From positions 166,967 through 230,966 of the forward strand of contig CAZPCB010000002.1 in assembly GCA_964585065.1 (NCBI GenBank): a DNA stretch of 64,000 nt, in the 5' to 3' direction. Shown one piece after another: positions 20,599-58,431 of this stretch (positions are counted from its first letter, which is position 1; each line of letters begins with the position of its first letter). This DNA comes from an uncultured Candidatus Saccharibacteria bacterium. GTDB lineage: Bacteria; Patescibacteriota; Minisyncoccia; SW-4-49-11. Both the position numbers and the translations under genes were made by a program. The notes beneath the pieces are model-generated. The model saw nothing but the letters and a program-made list of their open reading frames with translations. It did no database searches and was not told where the DNA came from.

Positions 20599-22482
20599 TT
20601 AATCTAGGGTACCAATATAATTATATCGAGCTATATACATATCTCTATTACTAGTAGGTGTGAGTGAGATTTGATTAGTACCGCCAATACCAAATGTTGC
20701 AAAACTATTAAAGTCTCCCGCTATTACAAAACCTCCCAGTACCTTCCCAATTGCTATTCCTCTATCTGAACCCATTCCTCCAGCTCTTCGAGCCCAAGCA
20801 AGAGTCCCATCAGTATTATATTTAGCTATAAATACATCATCACTACCACTACTGGTCAGAATAGTCTGATTTGTTTCTCCCGGTCCAAAAGTAGCTGTTC
20901 CATTAAATTGCCCTGTTATAATACTACTTCCATCTATATTCCTCATTATATCAAAACTGCTATCATCATTTAGGCCCCCAGCTTTTTTAGCCCAGATTAA
21001 ACTACCATTATCACTATATTTAGCTATAAATATATCTGAACCACCACTGCTACTTAAGATGGTTTGATTTGTCTCTCCTGGTCCAAAAGTAGCTGTTCCT
21101 TGAAGGTTTCCTATTATAAGACTATCAGTATTAGGTAATGTTCTAACTGCTATGGGGCCATCCCAACCAATTCCACCAACCTTTCGAGCCCAAGCTAAGG
21201 TTCCATTAGTATTATATTTGGCTATAAATCCATCTATATCAGTAGTATTCGTCAATATAGTTTGATTTGCTTCTCCTTGTCCAAGAGTAATATTTCCATA
21301 AAAAGCTCCAATTATGATAGAGCTACCATCATTTAACATACTAACTCCTGTACTATCATCTATATCTGTACCACCAGCTTTTCGAGCCCAAGCAAGAGTC
21401 CCATCAGTATTATATTTAGCTATAAAAGCATCTCTATTCCCAGCATTAGCTACTAGAATAGTCTGATTTGTTTCTCCCGGTCCAAAAGTAGCTGTTCCCT
21501 GAAAGTATCCTACACTAATACTAGTCCCATCAGATAAAGTACTAATACCATAGCCACGTCCATAATCTCCTACTACACTACCAGTAACTCCTTTAGCCCA
21601 AGCAAGAGTCCCATTGGCATTATATTTAGCTATAAATGTGTTATTTGAGATAATACTATTTAATGTTGTTTGATTTGTTTCCCCTTGTCCAAACACTGCA
21701 GTCCCACTAATATAACCCGTTGTAATACTGCTCCCATCAGGAAGACAGCTAATACCATAGCTTATATCATAGTCATTTCCTCCATCCCGCCTAACCCAAG
21801 CCAAACTACCATCGATATTATATTTGGCTACAAATATATCATATCCACTCCCAACAGATGTACGTATGGTCTGATTTGTTTCTCCTGGGGCGAAGGTTGC
21901 ATTTCCTTGAAATAATCCTGTCACTATACTGCTCCCATCAGAATTAGTACACATTCCCCCTGTATTAATAATTTCTCCAGGACTTCCCCCAGCCCGCTTT
22001 GCAAAGTTAACTGGTGTTGCTGGAAGGGTAAAAGTTGTACTTTGAGATTCAGAAGTGAAAGTGGTATTATCAACACTATTAATTCCTCCCACTCCAATTT
22101 TACCATTTGTACTTTTTACTATATAAAAACCACTATTATTGATATCGGTGGAATATGAAGGGATGCTCGCAATATAATTGGGTACTAATACAGATAAATT
22201 TACCTTACCCGTACAAGAGGGTGCTCCTGTTTTACAAATTTCTAGAGAACTACCAGCAGGAACATTCTGGACATCAGTAGGATAAGCTCCAGTTTTGAGT
22301 GCATATTGTTCTATAGCTTGATAGAGAGTAAGGGCATCAGCTTTACGCTTATTGTCATTGACTTCAGTAATAATTCTACTTGGATTAAGAGTATATAATA
22401 CTGTAGCAAAGAGAACAGCAAGTAGAGCAATAACAAGAAGTATTTCGAGTAGGGTAAAACCTTTTTTTGTATAGGGTTTCAT
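20599..22482 (-). CDS. Type IV pilin-like protein with C-terminal SBBP-type beta-propeller repeats (putative pilus adhesin)
   Basis: Prepilin N-terminus MKPYTKKGFTLLEILLVIALLAV (class III signal, GFTLLE). About 8 tandem repeats of the form G..D.S.GIS.L.DGSSI..G.F.GTATFGPGETNQTIL....DAFIAKYN.DGTLAWARK.GG. Confidence 0.7.
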   Translation of the reverse strand: MKPYTKKGFTLLEILLVIALLAVLFATVLYTLNPSRIITEVNDNKRKADALTLYQAIEQYALKTGAYPTDVQNVPAGSSLEICKTGAPSCTGKVNLSVLVPNYIASIPSYSTDINNSGFYIVKSTNGKIGVGGINSVDNTTFTSESQSTTFTLPATPVNFAKRAGGSPGEIINTGGMCTNSDGSSIVTGLFQGNATFAPGETNQTIRTSVGSGYDIFVAKYNIDGSLAWVRRDGGNDYDISYGISCLPDGSSITTGYISGTAVFGQGETNQTTLNSIISNNTFIAKYNANGTLAWAKGVTGSVVGDYGRGYGISTLSDGTSISVGYFQGTATFGPGETNQTILVANAGNRDAFIAKYNTDGTLAWARKAGGTDIDDSTGVSMLNDGSSIIIGAFYGNITLGQGEANQTILTNTTDIDGFIAKYNTNGTLAWARKVGGIGWDGPIAVRTLPNTDSLIIGNLQGTATFGPGETNQTILSSSGGSDIFIAKYSDNGSLIWAKKAGGLNDDSSFDIMRNIDGSSIITGQFNGTATFGPGETNQTILTSSGSDDVFIAKYNTDGTLAWARRAGGMGSDRGIAIGKVLGGFVIAGDFNSFATFGIGGTNQISLTPTSNRDMYIARYNYIGTLD

Positions 22483-38539: not shown

Positions 38540-39805
38540 ATGCAAAATAAAAAAGAAAAAGGCTTTACATTATTGGAGATATTACTAGTAATAGCAGTAA
38601 TAGGAATATTAGCAGCTATAGTATTAATTGCTATTAATCCTAATAAACAAATAGCGCAAGCTCGTAATACTGCTAGGAAAGTTGATATTAATACATTAGA
38701 AAAAGCCTTAAGACAATATTCTATAGATAATGCAGGTCAGCTCCCAAATGTAATACTGAATCAATATAAAGTAATTTGTAGACAAGGTATTACTGATCCT
38801 TCTTGTATTAATCTTGATGTTTTGGTACCCACATATATTGCGGCTATTCCTCGGGATACACAATCAAATACTATTAATACAGGATATTCGGTAGCAGTAA
38901 ATCCCAATAATACGAATGTTTCTATTGTTGCAAATTTAGCTGAACAGTTTGTAGAAATTTCAATTAATAAATTTAATGAAGGAAGTGGTGCTTCGGCTTT
39001 ATTAGCAGCTAATTCTTGTCAATCTATTTTGTCTTCTGGATACTCAACTGGAAATGGAGTATATTGGATTAATTTACCTACTTCAGGTGCTACACAGATA
39101 TATTGTCTTATGGATACATTATTTGATGGTGGTGGCTGGATGTTGGCTATGAAAGCTACTCGCGGCACTACATTTAATTACGACTCTGCTCATTGGACTA
39201 CAACAACAACATTAAATCCCACCGATCTAACGAGAAACGATGCGGATGCTAAGTATCATACTATGAACTATTACCCCACCAGGGATTTAATGGCCGTGTG
39301 GCCAGATATCCCAACAGCTGGAGGAAGTATTCCTAATACTGGAAGCTGGACTTGGTTGGAAAAGAATTTTTACAATGGTGGTAATCGAACTACTCCTATA
39401 AATTTCTTTAGCACAATGGGAACATATAATAATGGCGGAACACCTAGTACGGGTGATTATGGCGGCTATTTTATTAAAGACGCTAAGACATTTAGTGGCT
39501 GGGCAAATGGTGTGTTTTCGAGCCAGGTAGATATTAGATTTTATGGATTCAACTTTATCAATCATCCTAATTACGGATTTAATGGTAGAGTCCGTTGGGG
39601 ATTTGGATGGAATGAGAATGGTGAGGGACTATATACTAGTCCTGCTACACTAGCCACCGGCTGGGCACCTGGGTCGGATGACGTAAGTGGTGGTATAGGT
39701 ATGGCAAGTCAATTTGGTAGTTATTCAGCTGGAGATATAATTAACTGCTGTCAAGATAATACAGGTATAAACCGATCCGCTAGAGTTGAATTATATATTA
39801 GATAA
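38540..39805 (+). CDS. Type IV pilin-like protein with C-terminal fibrinogen-related domain (FReD)
   Basis: Prepilin N-terminus MQNKKEKGFTLLEILLVIAVIG. The segment NSCQSILSSGYSTGNGVYWINLPTSGATQIYCLMDTLFDGGGWMLAMKATRGTTFNY matches the FReD core pattern C..G.SGvY.I.P...VyCDM.tdGGGWT..Q.R.dG..F. Confidence 0.7.
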   Translation: MQNKKEKGFTLLEILLVIAVIGILAAIVLIAINPNKQIAQARNTARKVDINTLEKALRQYSIDNAGQLPNVILNQYKVICRQGITDPSCINLDVLVPTYIAAIPRDTQSNTINTGYSVAVNPNNTNVSIVANLAEQFVEISINKFNEGSGASALLAANSCQSILSSGYSTGNGVYWINLPTSGATQIYCLMDTLFDGGGWMLAMKATRGTTFNYDSAHWTTTTTLNPTDLTRNDADAKYHTMNYYPTRDLMAVWPDIPTAGGSIPNTGSWTWLEKNFYNGGNRTTPINFFSTMGTYNNGGTPSTGDYGGYFIKDAKTFSGWANGVFSSQVDIRFYGFNFINHPNYGFNGRVRWGFGWNENGEGLYTSPATLATGWAPGSDDVSGGIGMASQFGSYSAGDIINCCQDNTGINRSARVELYIR

Positions 39806-39814
39806 CAAAATTAT

Positions 39815-41086
39815 ATGGCAAAATTTAAGATTAAAGGAAAGCAATTTGGTAAAAAGGGTTTAATTCCCGTATATGGAGCCAAGAATTCAGCAATAAAATT
39901 ATTACCAGCTACACTCTTGATTGATGGAGTAATAACTCTTCATAATATTCCCGATATTGATGATATTCGCGATATGATTGCGATATTGATTGCACTGGGG
40001 GCAAAGGTAGATAAAATCGCCCAACATTCTTATACTATTGATACCACTACTATTGATAATAATAAAATTCCTATTGAACTTGCAATTAAAATGCGAGCAT
40101 CATTTTTGTTTATTGCTCCATTATTAATTCGTTTTGGAGAAGTTGAATTTCCTCATCCTGGAGGAGATGCAATTGGTCGTAGGCCAATTGATATGACATT
40201 AGAAAGTCTTAGATTAATGGGAGCTGAAGTGATTGAGGATAATCAAAAATATATATTCCGATTACCCAATAAAAGTCTTAAAGGAATAGAATATATATTC
40301 AAATGGATTTCGCATACATCTACAGAGAATTTAATTATGGCGGCGGTAAAGGCAGAAGGGAAGACAATCATTTATAATGCTGCTCTTGAGCCAGAAATTA
40401 CTGCTCTTTGTGATATGTTAAGAGGAGCGGGAGCTCAGATTACTGGAGATGGTACCTCACAAATTGAAATTGAAGGAGTTCAAGAATTATCCTCAGTAGA
40501 ATATACTAATATACCAGATAGACTTGAGGCAGGTACATTTGCAATTTTAGCGGCTCTCACCCGAAGTAATATTATGGTTACTGATATTAATCCTAATCAT
40601 TTGAGAGTATTTTGGAAATTCCTTGATATGGCGGGTATACAATATGAATTAGGGGATGACTTTGTACATATTATTCCTCATCATAATAGCTATAAGGCTC
40701 TACAGCTTAAAACACATGAATATCCTGGTTTTGTAACTGATTTACAAGCCCCATTTACCCTTTTATTAACACAGGCTATTGGTACTTCGGTAGTGCAGGA
40801 GACTATATTTGATGGAAGATTATTTTATACGGATACTTTGAATCAAATGGGTGCTAATATCATTATGTGTGATCCCTATCGCGTAGTAGTAAATGGACCT
40901 ACTCAATTATATGGACGCAAAATAGAAAGCCCTGATGTAAGAGCTGGCATGACATTTTTATTAGCAGCTTTAATTGCTGAGAGAGATAGTGAAATTCATA
41001 ATATTTATCATATTGATAGAGGATATGAGAAAATAGAAGAGCGCCTCACCAATATAGGCTTTGATATTATACGAGAAAATACATAG
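39815..41086 (+). CDS. murA: UDP-N-acetylglucosamine 1-carboxyvinyltransferase
   Basis: 423-aa EPSP-synthase-fold enzyme. N-terminus KIKG...LIPVYGAKNSAIKLLPATLL is typical of MurA. Confidence 0.9.
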   Translation: MAKFKIKGKQFGKKGLIPVYGAKNSAIKLLPATLLIDGVITLHNIPDIDDIRDMIAILIALGAKVDKIAQHSYTIDTTTIDNNKIPIELAIKMRASFLFIAPLLIRFGEVEFPHPGGDAIGRRPIDMTLESLRLMGAEVIEDNQKYIFRLPNKSLKGIEYIFKWISHTSTENLIMAAVKAEGKTIIYNAALEPEITALCDMLRGAGAQITGDGTSQIEIEGVQELSSVEYTNIPDRLEAGTFAILAALTRSNIMVTDINPNHLRVFWKFLDMAGIQYELGDDFVHIIPHHNSYKALQLKTHEYPGFVTDLQAPFTLLLTQAIGTSVVQETIFDGRLFYTDTLNQMGANIIMCDPYRVVVNGPTQLYGRKIESPDVRAGMTFLLAALIAERDSEIHNIYHIDRGYEKIEERLTNIGFDIIRENT

Positions 41087-41099
41087 TCTTCTTTTAGGT

Positions 41100-41480
41100 T
41101 TTTTTACATATTGTCCCTCGCTGGCGAGGGGGGACCACAAAGTGGTGGGTGTGGACCTGATTATGAATAAGATGAGGAATATCATAGACAAAATATGAGT
41201 TATGTAGGGGCGACCTTACAGTCGCCTGTATTCCACCCCGTCCGCCTAAAGGAGACCAACCCCTCAAGAGGGAAATATATAAAAATGTAGTGTTCTAAAT
41301 ATTTCCTGCCTAGGTTGTGGGTATATAGGCCCGCTCTATATCATAAAATACATTGTCCTGAAAATTACCCTCTTGAGGGGTGCCATCTTTGATGGCGGGA
41401 TGGAGGACACTATTGTGTACCTATCTACATTTTAAATTTACCTCTTTGTCTACAAGCTCCTCATCTCAATCTCATACAAA
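41100..41480. repeat. GC-rich hairpin-dense palindromic intergenic element, copy A (paralogous to 56760-57300)
   Basis: Shares the core TATGAATAAGATGAG..ATC.TAGACAAAAT.GAG..GTAGGG..G.CCTTACA.TCGC and CC.CC.AAAGGAGA.CAA with copy B. Internal long inverted repeat (41233-41272 vs 41368-41423) includes CCCCTCAAGAGGG/CCCTCTTGAGGGG. Confidence 0.6.
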
Positions 41481-41518
41481 TTAATCATATATTCATAATT
41501 TCATGATATACTTTCTAT

Positions 41519-43015
41519 ATGTATATGCATAATATTAGTAGAGATAATTTAGAAATTGCCAGTAAACAACTTTGGGATTTTTTGAAACCGTATATATCTT
41601 ATCTTAATTCAGCTGATTTAGAGCAAGTAGAAATTGCTTTTATGCAAATGGTAGAAGCTCATCAGGAGCAAAGACGAAAAAGTGGAGAATATTATATTAC
41701 TCACCCAGTTTCAGCTTGTATTACTTTGGCTGATATGAAATTAGATAGGGACACATTAATTGCAGTATTACTTCATGATGTACCAGAAGACACCGAGGTA
41801 AGCCTAAGACAATTAGAAAAAGTATTTAGTCATGAAGTGATTTTTCTTATTTCAGGAGTAACTAAATTATCTAGTATCAAATATCAAGGAGAAGATAGAT
41901 ATGCCGAGAATTTACGGCGTATGTTTGTTGCTATGAGTCGTGATATTCGGGTTATTTTTATCAAATTAGCTGATAGAATTCATAATCTCGAAACTCTTGA
42001 TGCTCTACCTCTTGATAAGGCTCATCGTATTGCTCTTGAGAGTTTAGAAATATATGCCCCTATTGCCGAGAGATTAGGTATGGGAAAATTTCAAGATAGA
42101 TTAGAGAATTTAAGCTTTCCCTATGCTTACCCTCAAGAATATAAAGCTTTAGTAGATGAGGTAAAGCAAGAATATAATATTCGCCAAAATGTATTAGAAC
42201 ATATTCAAAAGAATATCGAGCATATATTTAATGAAGAAGATATTGAGCATATTAAAATTTATGGAAGAGCAAAAAAATATTATTCTTTGTATAAAAAATT
42301 AGATGCAGGAAAAACCGTAGATGAAGTATATGATTTGATTGCGCTAAGGATTATTACAAAAGATATTGCAACTTGTTATCAAGTATTCTCAATAATTCAA
42401 TCCCATTTTGAGCCTCTCGAGAATCGGGTAAAAGATTATATTGCCAAGCCAAAAGATAATGGATATCAAAGTATTCATACTACTGTTCGAGACAAGGATA
42501 CAGGAACGGTATTTGAAGTACAAATTCGCACGGAGGAAATGCATGAATATTGTGAATATGGAGTTGCATCACATTGGTCGTATAAACAAAAATCAGATAT
42601 AGATACTCATTCTTTTATTGATACAGATAAATTTAAATGGATACAAGATTTAGTTAATTTAGGTAAAGAGCCATTGTCGGAAGAAGAGTATTTACAATAT
42701 GTAAAATTAGATTTATTTCAGGATCAAATTTTTGTTATGACACCAAAGGGGGATGCTATTCGTTTACTTGAAGGTGCTACGGCTCTTGATTTTGCTTTTC
42801 GTATTCATCAAGATATTGGAAGACATGCGAGCCTAGCTAAGGTAAATGGAAGCCCGGTTAAATTATCAGAAAAGTTAAAAAATGGTGATATAGTAGAAAT
42901 TATCACCGATAAAAAACAAAAGCCTCATCGTGATTGGTTGAATATGGTCAAAACTCCTTCAGCAGCTCGTACTATACGCAATAATTTGCGTAAACAGGGG
43001 GTTAAATTGGGATAA
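41519..43015 (+). CDS. Short RelA/SpoT-homologue (p)ppGpp synthetase/hydrolase (HD + synthetase + TGS, no ACT/C-terminal regulatory region)
   Basis: HD motif HDVPEDT. Synthetase motifs (GRAKKYYSLYKKL, DLIALRII, YQSIHTTV, EVQIRTEEMHE). TGS domain at the C-terminus. 498 aa. Confidence 0.85.
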   Translation: MYMHNISRDNLEIASKQLWDFLKPYISYLNSADLEQVEIAFMQMVEAHQEQRRKSGEYYITHPVSACITLADMKLDRDTLIAVLLHDVPEDTEVSLRQLEKVFSHEVIFLISGVTKLSSIKYQGEDRYAENLRRMFVAMSRDIRVIFIKLADRIHNLETLDALPLDKAHRIALESLEIYAPIAERLGMGKFQDRLENLSFPYAYPQEYKALVDEVKQEYNIRQNVLEHIQKNIEHIFNEEDIEHIKIYGRAKKYYSLYKKLDAGKTVDEVYDLIALRIITKDIATCYQVFSIIQSHFEPLENRVKDYIAKPKDNGYQSIHTTVRDKDTGTVFEVQIRTEEMHEYCEYGVASHWSYKQKSDIDTHSFIDTDKFKWIQDLVNLGKEPLSEEEYLQYVKLDLFQDQIFVMTPKGDAIRLLEGATALDFAFRIHQDIGRHASLAKVNGSPVKLSEKLKNGDIVEIITDKKQKPHRDWLNMVKTPSAARTIRNNLRKQGVKLG

Positions 43016-48794: not shown

Positions 48795-48846
48795 AATACT
48801 TTTTGATTCTATATTGCTCATATAGAGGGAATATACTATAATGTAA

Positions 48847-49059
48847 ATGTTCTTTGCTGCAATTGCAGTGATTGAAGACCCTGAGATAGCCTCATTGATT
48901 GCAGCAGCATTGATATGTTTTCATAGGTCTGGATATCGACAAGAGTGGTGGAGAAATTATACGATAAAAGAAGGTAGGGTGTGTTTCAGTATACCAGGAG
49001 AGGCGGAATTTTGTTTTTGTCCTCTGCAGGTAAAGGTTATTGAGGTGAGGAGATATTAG
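48847..49059 (+). CDS. Small Cys-rich hypothetical protein (70 aa), apparently leaderless
   Basis: ATG 5 nt after a TATACTATAAT box. Cys residues in CFH, VCFS and FCFCP. Followed by a terminator at 49074-49106. Coding status uncertain. Confidence 0.25.
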   Translation: MFFAAIAVIEDPEIASLIAAALICFHRSGYRQEWWRNYTIKEGRVCFSIPGEAEFCFCPLQVKVIEVRRY

Positions 49060-49073
49060 AAATTCTCCCATTT

Positions 49074-49106
49074 AAAACCCAGATGTTTGTGCATCTTGGG
49101 TTTTTT
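49074..49106 (+). terminator. Intrinsic terminator (CCCAGAUG-uuugug-CAUCUUGGG + U6)
   Basis: GC-containing stem followed by TTTTTT. Confidence 0.5.
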
Positions 49107-49150
49107 CTTTGCTATACAAAAGGGCTTTTTTTGAGTATAATAAAGCCATT

Positions 49151-56738: not shown

Positions 56739-56759
56739 ATTGGTAAATCAATACAAAGA

Positions 56760-57300
56760 CAAACAATAATTAATTATAAACTGTAGAGTGGTTGACAAGT
56801 GGGGGAGGAGGTCCCCTCCGAAGGGAGACAAAATACAAGTTGCACAAAAATCCAAACACAGGTGACTGAGAGGTCACCCCTACGAGATTTTATAAAAAGT
56901 TTGTATATATCTCAAGTGCTAATATATACAAACTAGGGTACTTTGTATATATCTATGAATAAGATGAGATACATCGTAGACAAAATGAGATTGGTGTAGG
57001 GTGGCCTTACAATCGCATATGTTTTCGTAACAAAAGAATTATTACTTTTATCCCCCCCTTTTTTTTTGGGGTAGGGGCTGAAAGGCGGGGGTGTATAAGA
57101 TAAAAACTTGAACTCTATCCACCTCCGGCCTGACGGCCACCTCCTCCAAAGGAGAACAATTTTTGTATCAAGCTATGTTTTGTAAGTTATTAATGTATAG
57201 TAATCTGTTTTATATATTAATTTCCCCATCTCCTACAGGTAATAGATAGTAATACAGAGAATAACCGTGACACTCCTCTCTGTACAGAGAATATAATATA
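56760..57300. repeat. GC-rich hairpin-dense palindromic intergenic element, copy B (paralogous to 41100-41480)
   Basis: Shares the core with copy A (about 80% identity over about 70 nt from 56954). Contains a perfect 11-bp palindrome TTTGTATATAT/ATATATACAAA (56900-56932), a C7T9G4 homopolymer run (57052-57071) and a direct repeat TACAGAGAATA. Confidence 0.6.
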
Positions 57301-57333
57301 TATTATAATAATAGTATATTAATTTTTATTATT

Positions 57334-58326
57334 ATGTCTAAAGATATAGATTCTAGTTTAGAATCATCAGGTGAAAAACAAGTTTATGCCTCATCTCAGA
57401 GAAGATTGATTGCATATGTTTTGGATTTTATTTTAGCATTCTGGATATCATATGTATTATATATAATAAGTTTTATTATCATTATATTAGCCCCGTTTCC
57501 TCTTGTTACCTTGTATAATAATATACATAATAGAGTGCTTGAACTATTTGATAACAATATAATAATTTTTGGATTGATTCTATATACTGTTTATTTTGGT
57601 TTATCCTTTCTCATCTTTGGGAATACATTGGGAGGGAAGTCTACGGGAATTAATGTTGTGAATACGGCAGGGGGTATTATATCTAAAAGAAAACTAGCTT
57701 TTAGGGGGCTGATTATAGGAGTGTTGACGTCATTATCTCCATTGATACTATTACTATCAATTACTACCTTATTTGATAAAAAGAAAAGAACTTTGTATGA
57801 TATGGTGCTTGGTACGGTGGTTAATAAAGAATTATCTCATAATAATTATGATTCACTACCACAAAATCAAGTATATGCATCAGCTTTAAGAAGATTTTCT
57901 GCATATACTTTAGATATAATTCTTTTGATTATTATTTCGGTTGTCTTGAGTACGGGGTTTTTATTTGCTTATTTGGGAGGTATTATAGGATCTGCTGGAT
58001 TTGATCCTTTTGTTGGGCTTGCTCAAAATCAATTTTTAACTGACATTGTAACTACAAATAAATATGAGAGCCTTTATAGTTTGATTTATATTTTTTACTT
58101 TTTCTTCTCATTTCTCCTATTTGGGAATACATGGGGAGGGTATATTTTGAAAATTGAATCAGTAAATAGTGGTGGTGAGCGAGCATCAAAAATTAAGCTT
58201 GCTTTTAGAGCTTTGTGGTTTGTATTAATCCCAATTAGTGCAATAACAGTTTTATTTAATGACAAAAAAAGAGCTGTACATGATGTAGTTTTCGGTACAG
58301 TGGTGACTAAAGATAGAATCTTATAG
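57334..58326 (+). CDS. RDD-family membrane protein with tandem duplicated RDD domains
   Basis: Two homologous halves, each starting YASSQRRLIAYVLDFIL / YASALRRFSAYTLDIIL and ending KKRTLYDMVLGTVV / KKRAVHDVVFGTVV. Confidence 0.5.
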   Translation: MSKDIDSSLESSGEKQVYASSQRRLIAYVLDFILAFWISYVLYIISFIIIILAPFPLVTLYNNIHNRVLELFDNNIIIFGLILYTVYFGLSFLIFGNTLGGKSTGINVVNTAGGIISKRKLAFRGLIIGVLTSLSPLILLLSITTLFDKKKRTLYDMVLGTVVNKELSHNNYDSLPQNQVYASALRRFSAYTLDIILLIIISVVLSTGFLFAYLGGIIGSAGFDPFVGLAQNQFLTDIVTTNKYESLYSLIYIFYFFFSFLLFGNTWGGYILKIESVNSGGERASKIKLAFRALWFVLIPISAITVLFNDKKRAVHDVVFGTVVTKDRIL

Positions 58327-58431
58327 GGTACTGGAAGTAAAAATTGTATTGAATACGATATATGGGGGGATATTTATTTTAGATTTATCTATTAATTTAC
58401 CCATTTCCTACACCTCATCTTATACATACTA

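Follow-up and report, generated by a model that had tools for sequence, protein, structure and literature searches.

What is the GC-rich, hairpin-filled DNA between a murA-type gene and a RelA/SpoT homologue doing in the compact genome of a member of the Candidatus Paceibacteria (candidate phyla radiation (CPR)/Patescibacteria)? The stretch analysed here (64,000 nt, hereafter the window) was assigned to this group by a pattern scan of species-representative genomes; it is AT-rich, with a GC content of about 33%, and carries nearly all of its genes on the + strand. GC-rich islands occur in its intergenic DNA at two places only, the murA-relA spacer (region A) and positions 56786-57157 of a second spacer, downstream of a HisRS-like gene (region B; hisS). 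A first-pass annotation, made from the letters alone, had offered three explanations for region A: a structured RNA or leader-peptide attenuator, a small-RNA gene family, or a repeat resembling a miniature inverted-repeat transposable element (MITE). Our comparisons favour the last, and region A is probably a recent selfish non-coding repeat insertion, a mosaic of the MITE or repetitive extragenic palindromic (REP) kind, and not a regulator of relA. We observed an insertion, inverted ends, dispersed sister copies of which the two best preserved have 5-bp flanking repeats, recombination between modules, and a relA promoter downstream of the inserted DNA.

The loci compared with the window are labelled L001-L035. 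L001-L006 form the window's own strain cluster, and L006, on contig JBIIRM010000003.1 of a metagenome-assembled genome (MAG), is 98.4% identical to the window across the aligned 8 kb including region A. L007, L008 and L009 are loci of one other Paceibacteria MAG (JBIKWJ) and were found by pattern scans for the core that regions A and B share, while L010-L021 are metagenome contigs matching the core pattern, two of which look like chance matches. RelA orthologues were searched at the protein level, and their contigs were then compared at the murA-relA spacer. This spacer measured 432 nt in the window, in line with the roughly 430 nt first described, and only 34, 35 and 15 nt in L024, L025 and L026, whose RelA proteins are 90%, 82% and 81% identical to that of the window. 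L022 (RelA 96% identical) holds another insert at this position, a 138-aa pilin-like open reading frame (ORF), and L023 (94%) has a run of Ns, that is, an assembly gap, precisely at the spacer. Among the loci compared, region A was confined to L001-L006, where L006 differs from the window at 4 of the 432 nt (99.1% identity), and strain differences in region A and its flanks were clustered in recombination tracts. Homology to the empty murA-relA site resumes about 13 nt past the right end of the repeat element within region A (element A). Judged by these alignments, region A appears to be a lineage-specific insertion. BLAST searches of region A against phage and plasmid collections gave no match, and a scan of viral contigs for the left end of the element returned a single match, a chance one inside a phage gene.

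L007, L008, L009 and region B served as references for placing the ends of element A, and the only ORF of at least 60 aa touching it is an antisense TTG ORF that overlaps the end of murA. Its left end, TGAATAAGATGAGnnAnATCnTAGACAAAA, which we named the P-box, holds a -35-like TAGACA and the ATG of a mini-ORF, and faces a decayed inverted counterpart at the right end. These terminal inverted repeats (41164-41193 versus 41445-41478) had been overlooked in the first-pass annotation. The interior, which in this element family consists of GC-rich hairpin modules of the CCCTC/GAGGG type, includes the large imperfect inverted repeat noticed earlier; its core arms (41259-41276 and 41364-41381, 18 nt at 94% complementarity) extend outwards imperfectly as described and are present in the minimum-free-energy fold. 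The folding energy of element A lies far under that of shuffled sequences on both strands (z = -6.8 sense, -8.7 antisense). Directly outside the left end lies a separate GC-rich unit, module M3, whose scaffold was also found in L008, L014, L017 (twice) and L020. The second hairpin of M3, between CGAGGG and GGGTGTGGAC, exists in three stem versions (ACCAC/GTGGT, GTCGAC/GTCGAC and ACCGC/GCGGT); these variable stems were folded one by one, and a MAFFT alignment displaced the variable hairpin by one column. The three hairpins listed in the first-pass annotation are present at 41115-41130, 41134-41146 and 41209-41226. The second and third read ACCAC-AAA-GTGGT and GGCGAC-CTTACA-GTCGCC; the first had been written with one G too many and reads CCCTCG-CTGG-CGAGGG. 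Tandem periodicity was looked for in the repeat region, and none was found.

Recurrence of the core at 56954, in region B, held up on measurement, with 48 nt at 81% identity ungapped and 64 nt at 79.7% by BLAST (56954-57018, about 65 nt), and a 25-nt core consensus has a chance expectation of 0.00 in the window. The module CC.CC.AAAGGAGA.CAA was likewise found in both regions. Across copies, the conserved unit is the 30-nt block TGAATAAGATGAGATACATCGTAGACAAAA, the consensus P-box, which is identical at 30/30 positions in region B, L008, L014, L017 and L021 and at 29/30 in L007 and L019. Six copies (A, B, L007, L008, L009 and L020) share one arrangement, in which the hairpin GTAGGGGCGACCTTACAGTCGCC (H1) comes exactly 11 nt past the P-box and has GC-rich modules behind it. 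The far end carries an inverted imperfect P-box ending in ...CTCATCTYATACA in 5/6 of these, L020 being without a detectable right end, and in L008 and L009 an inverted H1 lies just within the right end as well. These copies are thus elements of 290-420 bp that have 5'-TG...CA-3' tips and long, though imperfect, inverted repeats at their termini. The two ends of the L008 element are identical at 26/29 positions with one gap, and the inverted ends are increasingly decayed in the order A, L009, L007, B. Perfect 5-bp direct repeats flank the two best-preserved copies, L008 (GAGTT/GAGTT) and L009 (AACCC/AACCC). Given the AT-rich composition, we estimate the chance of a perfect 5-mer match at about 0.002 per element, so two among five elements are unlikely by chance, even with element boundaries that were picked after seeing the data.

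The copies are dispersed and mosaic. Copy B and L007 share 86.5% identity over 193 nt next to unrelated genes, and the L009 copy, which sits about 15 nt past a tRNA gene, is chimeric, its 5' part resembling L007 (90.7%) and its 3' 247 nt resembling L008 (94.3%). Single modules, alone or reversed, occur in L014, L017, L019 and L021. Stems vary in a paired manner, with GGCC/GGCC and GGCAC/GTGCC versions between CCACCTCC and ACCTCCTCC and a compensatory variant of the H1 stem (GGCGAC/GTCGCC versus GGTGAC/GTCACC), and hairpin potential is maintained across copies, at the DNA or RNA level. The suggestion of a MITE-like mobile repeat is the one that the comparisons bear out, by terminal inverted repeats, flanking direct repeats in the best-preserved relatives, and presence/absence polymorphism between related strains, the very signs that the first-pass annotation had named.

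The element had been described as lying upstream of RelA/SpoT, which is correct as to position, but the relA promoter sits between the two. With 24 copies in the window, where 3.8 would be expected, the motif TGnTATACT is enriched, and most copies end 22-32 nt ahead of start codons; because of this enrichment and typical placement, we regard it as the extended -10 promoter box of the organism. The relA copy of this box is conserved in L022, which lacks the element. Window promoters in general look to be of the extended -10 type, (ATA)TGnTATACT, the ordinary ones having no recognisable -35. The relA box ends just 7 nt ahead of the annotated ATG, and because of this short gap relA may be leaderless or start at a later codon. 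No U-tract terminator was found in region A. With Rfam 15, the whole window returned two tRNAs only at the gathering threshold, and the scan of regions A and B that had been proposed for the RNA reading gave no relevant match even at E<=10, the best scores falling far under threshold.

A mini-ORF retained in both copies had been put forward as a possible leader peptide. It is literally there in A and B, but it is not a conserved ORF. The two copies align gap-free from the core and P-box to H1 (11 nt in both), so the differing stops fall at different codons. Its ATG belongs to the P-box part AAGATGAG, and at loci where the P-box stands alone (see below) the frame runs on into unrelated sequence. 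The mini-ORF is thus an accident of the P-box sequence. We rejected a leader peptide on the grounds of the differing ORF ends, the presence of the same 30 nt before unrelated sequence elsewhere, and a location upstream of -10 boxes. Element A does not read as a relA/spoT riboswitch or leader, and region A should not be modelled as one in annotation.

We propose that element A is a miniature non-autonomous transposable element that would be moved in trans by a transposase encoded elsewhere in the genome. Such an enzyme would bind the ~30-bp ends, and the TG/CA tips together with the short target duplication point to one of the DDE type. The core shared by A and B would then be a transposon end, neither a peptide nor an RNA gene, and region B would be the same kind of element within a larger, 1.7-kb insertion at a second hotspot. 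At murA-relA the element would have little or no regulatory role for relA, and its hairpins may at most form a decoration or a stabilising structure at the 3' end of murA transcripts.

Several observations weigh against a transposable element. The flanking repeat in the window's own copies is only 4/5 (GATTA/AATTA in A) or missing (B), and L007 has none either. In L008 and L009 the similarity of the direct repeats continues over 3 nt of the element tip (ACA), which leaves both the precise boundary and the length of the duplication (5 or 8 bp) uncertain. The P-box end has a low copy number, 2 in the 64-kb window and 3 in MAG JBIKWJ. No transposase, integrase or Y1 domain was found in the window ORFs of at least 100 aa that were scanned, and no transposase with matching ends in the window or the fetched loci. 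Compensatory stem changes between copies also fit selection on structure. In addition, decay of transposon ends explains poorly why solo P-boxes stand ahead of -10 boxes, with unrelated spacers and genes behind them.

Such solo P-boxes occur in eight loci (L010/L016, which is one locus sampled twice, L011, L012, L014, L017, L018, L019 and L021). In 6/7 distinct loci a -10 box follows the P-box via an unrelated spacer after 11 nt (10 nt in L018), and in L010/L016 the gap is 21 nt. The -10 is an extended TGnTATAnT-type box in five loci and TAGTAGAAT in L017. TAGACA in the solo P-box is thus a predicted -35 hexamer, spaced about 17 nt from the -10, and the 30 nt of the P-box, being upstream of the -10 boxes of these promoters, would not be transcribed there. 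A single gene with its own terminator begins 39-71 nt past the solo P-box. Small membrane proteins, a VanW-like protein and other products are encoded there, by unrelated genes. L011 and L018 have orthologous small genes with a P-box before each; L018 shares the gene order of the window as far as hisS and has its P-box 40 nt past the hisS stop. Hairpin-bearing copies do not look like promoters, because TAGGGGCGA occupies the -10 position. A transposon with these genes as cargo was rejected, since no inverted P-box was found downstream of the solo promoter-type P-boxes within the 1.5-9.7 kb compared, as was a Tc1/IS630-like insertion at TA into a -10 box, because excising the hairpin block at TA...TA fails to yield the 17-nt spacing.

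This double occurrence of the P-box is the one unusual trait of the family. Solo P-boxes could be domesticated transposon ends, ends mimicking a host promoter or operator, or a recombination site. It is conceivable, though unlikely, that the P-box is dual-purpose and spread through Paceibacteria, both as an end recognised by a transposase or recombinase and as a portable -35/upstream module that switches on single-gene accessory units, which here would be those for small membrane proteins, the VanW-like protein and the RDD protein of region B. If true, the P-box would be a promoter-dispersal or cassette-integration system in reduced, regulator-poor CPR genomes, with the hairpin blocks as non-coding passengers.

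Among the alternatives to a transposable element with P-box ends, the one that survives best is a system of the REP type, or of the type in which two REP hairpins form an inverted doublet (REPIN). In such a system, activity would reside in the GTAG-hairpins (H1 and the inverted partner), which a single-copy REP-associated tyrosine transposase (RAYT; IS200/IS605-like Y1) would mobilise, and the P-box ends would be incidental. By definition, a REP sequence has a palindrome behind a 5' GT[A/G]G tetranucleotide (PMC3686654), and H1 has this form. We found such hairpins at 41204-41226, in inverted copy at 56861-56883, and in L008, L020 and L021. In L021 (69-140), two of them form an inverted doublet across a spacer of ~30 nt, as in a REPIN, and L019 has a hairpin of this kind standing alone. 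H1 has its compensatory GGTGAC/GTCACC variant, and the units are mosaic like bacterial interspersed mosaic elements (BIMEs). The doublet is close in L021; its halves are about 280 nt apart in L008 and L009, and copy A is without a clean partner. The full elements, however, have terminal inverted repeats and target duplications, and Y1 transposition makes neither. About three such hairpins lie in 64 kb, neither a Y1_Tnp domain nor a RAYT gene was found among the window ORFs scanned, and the literature searched links neither REPIN nor RAYT with Patescibacteria. We consider this explanation rather improbable.

A family of structured non-coding RNA genes, with a promoter role for the P-box and with the hairpin block as an RNA acting in trans or as a scaffold, could draw on the -35 (TAGACA) of the P-box, whose distance to extended -10 boxes is 17 nt in eight other loci, on the very stable predicted folds across copies (z = -6.8 to -11.3), on compensatory stem changes in conserved scaffolds and on pairing between the 5' and 3' ends. 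In the copies at issue, however, no -10 follows the -35-like TAGACA, and TAGGGGCGA takes the expected -10 position in 6/6 hairpin-bearing copies. A strand test based on minimum free energy and G-U counts, for both strands of five copies, revealed no advantage of the sense strand, and the antisense strand folds equally well or better in 4/5. Module order is shuffled and content varies, one copy is oriented opposite to both of its neighbour genes, close relatives lack the element, and Rfam gave no match. The small-RNA family offered in the first-pass annotation therefore has little probability.

Still less probable is that the P-box is a site-specific recombination site or cassette junction, with an integron-like exchange of hairpin blocks and single-gene units next to it. 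Six loci of different genomes carry the 30-bp block at 100% identity, with sharp edges and unrelated sequence beyond, it stands at synteny breakpoints (after hisS in the window and in L018), L035 has it without a hairpin block, and the downstream genes are single-gene units with their own terminators. Against this, the window ORFs scanned include no recombinase nearby, the P-box is without the dyad symmetry of an Xer or integrase core, and inverted P-boxes with flanking direct repeats fit transposition better, in a sample of about 15 loci. A leader-peptide attenuator or riboswitch controlling relA/spoT, for which the position before relA, an ATG-initiated ORF of 11-14 codons in both copies and possible alternative overlapping hairpins might speak, is scarcely credible in view of a relA promoter downstream of the element, relA orthologues without it, a copy B that precedes an unrelated gene, an unconserved ORF stop and no Rfam leader or riboswitch match.

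Region B shows the P-box ends in a second, larger insertion. In four relatives (L030-L033; HisRS-like protein 66-93% identical) hisS is followed after 106 nt by S21-YqeY-YbeY-FtsA, whereas the window carries about 1.7 kb extra between hisS and S21. The inserted DNA consists, in order, of a module cluster, palindromic TTTGTATATAT repeats, a P-box, H1 and modules, a decayed inverted P-box, the RDD gene and an inverted P-box tip. The module cluster (56800-56883) is homologous to the 3' parts of L008 and L009 and to L021 114-144 and is missing at the empty sites L030-L033. Likewise, the RDD gene is not found between hisS and S21 in L030-L033, and its protein has two homologues only at E<=1e-20 in a collection of 5.8 billion proteins. 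Homology to the empty site resumes 4 nt past the inverted P-box tip, at ATTGCTAA. In L034 and L035, the strains with the RDD homologues (RDD 93% identical), the hotspot also holds Fic and GmrSD_N genes. In L035 the P-box runs almost immediately into DNA corresponding to the window past position 57241, the hairpin block being missing; because these strains lack it next to the P-box, the ~260-nt hairpin block is itself an indel polymorphism. The features of both regions are listed in Table 1.

Table 1. Features of regions A and B and their neighbourhood (positions within the window).
Feature	Position	Strand	Description
murA-type gene	39815-41086		EPSP_synthase family; 5' neighbour of region A
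Region A	41087-41518		murA-relA spacer
Module M3	41113-41156	+	GTCC, hairpin CCCTCG-CTGG-CGAGGG, variable hairpin ACCAC-AAA-GTGGT, then GGGTGTGGAC
Element A	41164-41478	+	315 bp, non-coding; termini 5'-TG...CA-3'; flanks GATTA / AATTA (4/5 identical)
Left terminal repeat (P-box)	41164-41193	+	TGAATAAGATGAGGAATATCATAGACAAAA; 26/30 match to the consensus found in 15 other loci
REP-like hairpin H1	41204-41226	+	GTAG GG GCGAC-CTTACA-GTCGC C; 11 nt past the P-box
Internal long imperfect hairpin	41227-41410	+	core arms 41259-41276 / 41364-41381
Right terminal repeat	41445-41478	+	TTTGTCTACAAGCTCCTCATCTCAATCTCATACA; decayed inverted P-box, inverted repeat of the left end
Extended -10 box of the RelA/SpoT gene	41504-41512	+	TGATATACT; downstream of element A
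RelA/SpoT homologue	41519-43015		498 aa; 3' neighbour of region A
Region B	56739-57333		between hisS and the RDD-family membrane protein gene
Module cluster left of copy B	56800-56883	+	CCCCTCC-GAA-GGGAG hairpin, then inverted REP-like hairpin GGTGACTGAGAGGTCACCCCTAC (56861-56883)
P-box of copy B	56956-56985	+	30/30 identity to the consensus
Copy B interior	56986-57237	+	H1 (56996-57017), hairpin modules, decayed inverted P-box (57223-57237)
Copy B module	57119-57159	+	hairpin module CCACCTCC-GGCCTGACGGCC-ACCTCCTCCAAAGGAGAACAA
RDD-family membrane protein gene	57334-58326	+	Pfam RDD; within the 1.7-kb insertion
Inverted P-box tip	58413-58426	+	CCTCATCTTATACA; 14/14 match to the L008 right end; right boundary of the insertion

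The TTTGTATATAT repeats of the hisS-S21 hotspot alternate with ATATATACAAA, with three copies in the window (56898-56950) and about six in L034 (1821-1943) and L035 (113-235), where they lie upstream of the Fic gene; these arrays resemble an operator or iteron array. Both murA-relA (41087-41518) and hisS-S21 (56739-58430) are short housekeeping spacers that act as insertion hotspots, with differing inserts in close strains. The inserts seen in the window, L022-L026 and L030-L035 are a pilin-like ORF, Fic, GmrSD_N and RDD genes, and the repeats. Next to the first hotspot, between a Mur ligase gene and murA, lies a gene (38540-39805) whose 421-aa product bears a type IV pilin N-methylation motif. 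This gene is another strain-specific insertion, because it is missing at that position in L022 and L024-L026.

Other parts of the window also drew attention. Upstream of ileS, 183 nt of non-coding DNA on the minus strand (2322-2504) are 88.5% identical to L014 5982-6164, compared with about 81% for the proteins. This stretch has a -10-like box TGGTATAAA, then about 135 nt, the hairpin GCCCCTGCATTGAGGGC and TTTTT. It is a candidate small RNA; its fold z is -3.6, and Rfam gave no match at E<=1. A near-consensus TTGACA-17-TATAAT promoter, rare in this genome, lies at 2011-2040 and is conserved in L014; the 270 nt after it (to 2320) are GC-richer, unconserved with L014 and without an Rfam match. 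At 20599-22482 on the minus strand, a 627-aa ORF contains about six tandem repeats of ~198 nt (66 aa) with 60-87% identity and has a weak DUF5122 beta-propeller match. Positions 48840-49110, just before a tRNA-Arg gene, look structured, with a terminator-like hairpin (AAAACCCAGATG...CATCTTGGGTTTTTT) and no Rfam match; in the L001 counterpart, a gene caller placed a 70-aa ORF, which has no Pfam matches.

Genomes of Patescibacteria are usually portrayed as streamlined and repeat-poor. None of the literature searched describes MITE, REP or palindromic repeats for this group, and repeats of the MITE/REP type thus appear to be undescribed there so far. The repeat family marks insertion hotspots and breaks metagenome assemblies, as the gap in L023 at this very spot illustrates. 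The 30-bp end, shared unchanged between genomes and doubling as a putative -35 module, may offer a handle on the movement of promoters and small accessory genes in uncultivated bacteria.

How does the family compare with known systems? Arrays of tandem interspaced guide RNAs (TIGR) are common in CPR bacteria and consist of regular tandem units adjoining a Tas gene with a Nop domain (PMC12045711). The likeness lies in hairpin-rich non-coding CPR DNA with variable stems between short conserved motifs. A TIGR-Tas array was rejected, given no periodicity, the neighbours murA, relA, hisS and RDD, and neither a Nop domain nor a Tas gene among the window ORFs scanned. With REP, REPIN and BIME sequences and their RAYT (PMC3686654; PMC3116915), the family shares a GT[A/G]G tetranucleotide with a ~20-nt GC-rich palindrome, inverted doublets (a clear one in L021), mosaics and a strictly extragenic location. 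REPINs are without the terminal inverted repeats and the flanking duplications of the composite elements, and no Y1/RAYT domain was seen among the window ORFs scanned; we therefore treat REP as a resemblance and a rival mechanism, not as membership.

The modular A-B-C-type BOX elements of Streptococcus pneumoniae and the Rickettsia palindromic elements are dispersed hairpin-formers in small, AT-rich genomes, and their function is uncertain. They resemble the present family as modular or palindromic dispersed repeats but are unrelated in sequence, and Rickettsia palindromic elements often lie within genes, whereas the present family is intergenic only. Correia/NEMIS elements of Neisseria are short (about 100-400 bp), non-coding and intergenic, with terminal inverted repeats of about 26-30 bp and strain-variable presence. 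They have short target duplications (TA), their ends carry promoter elements able to drive neighbouring genes, and they form long hairpins if transcribed. The family described here, for which no sequence similarity to Correia elements is expected, differs in its 5-bp (or 8-bp) repeats in place of TA, its shuffled mosaic of GC-rich hairpins in an AT-rich genome, its low apparent copy number and its lack of a known parent insertion sequence. By description, it is Correia-like in size, non-coding nature, inverted ends, short flanking repeats (in the best-preserved copies), intergenic siting, strain-variable presence, promoter-type ends and hairpin folding.

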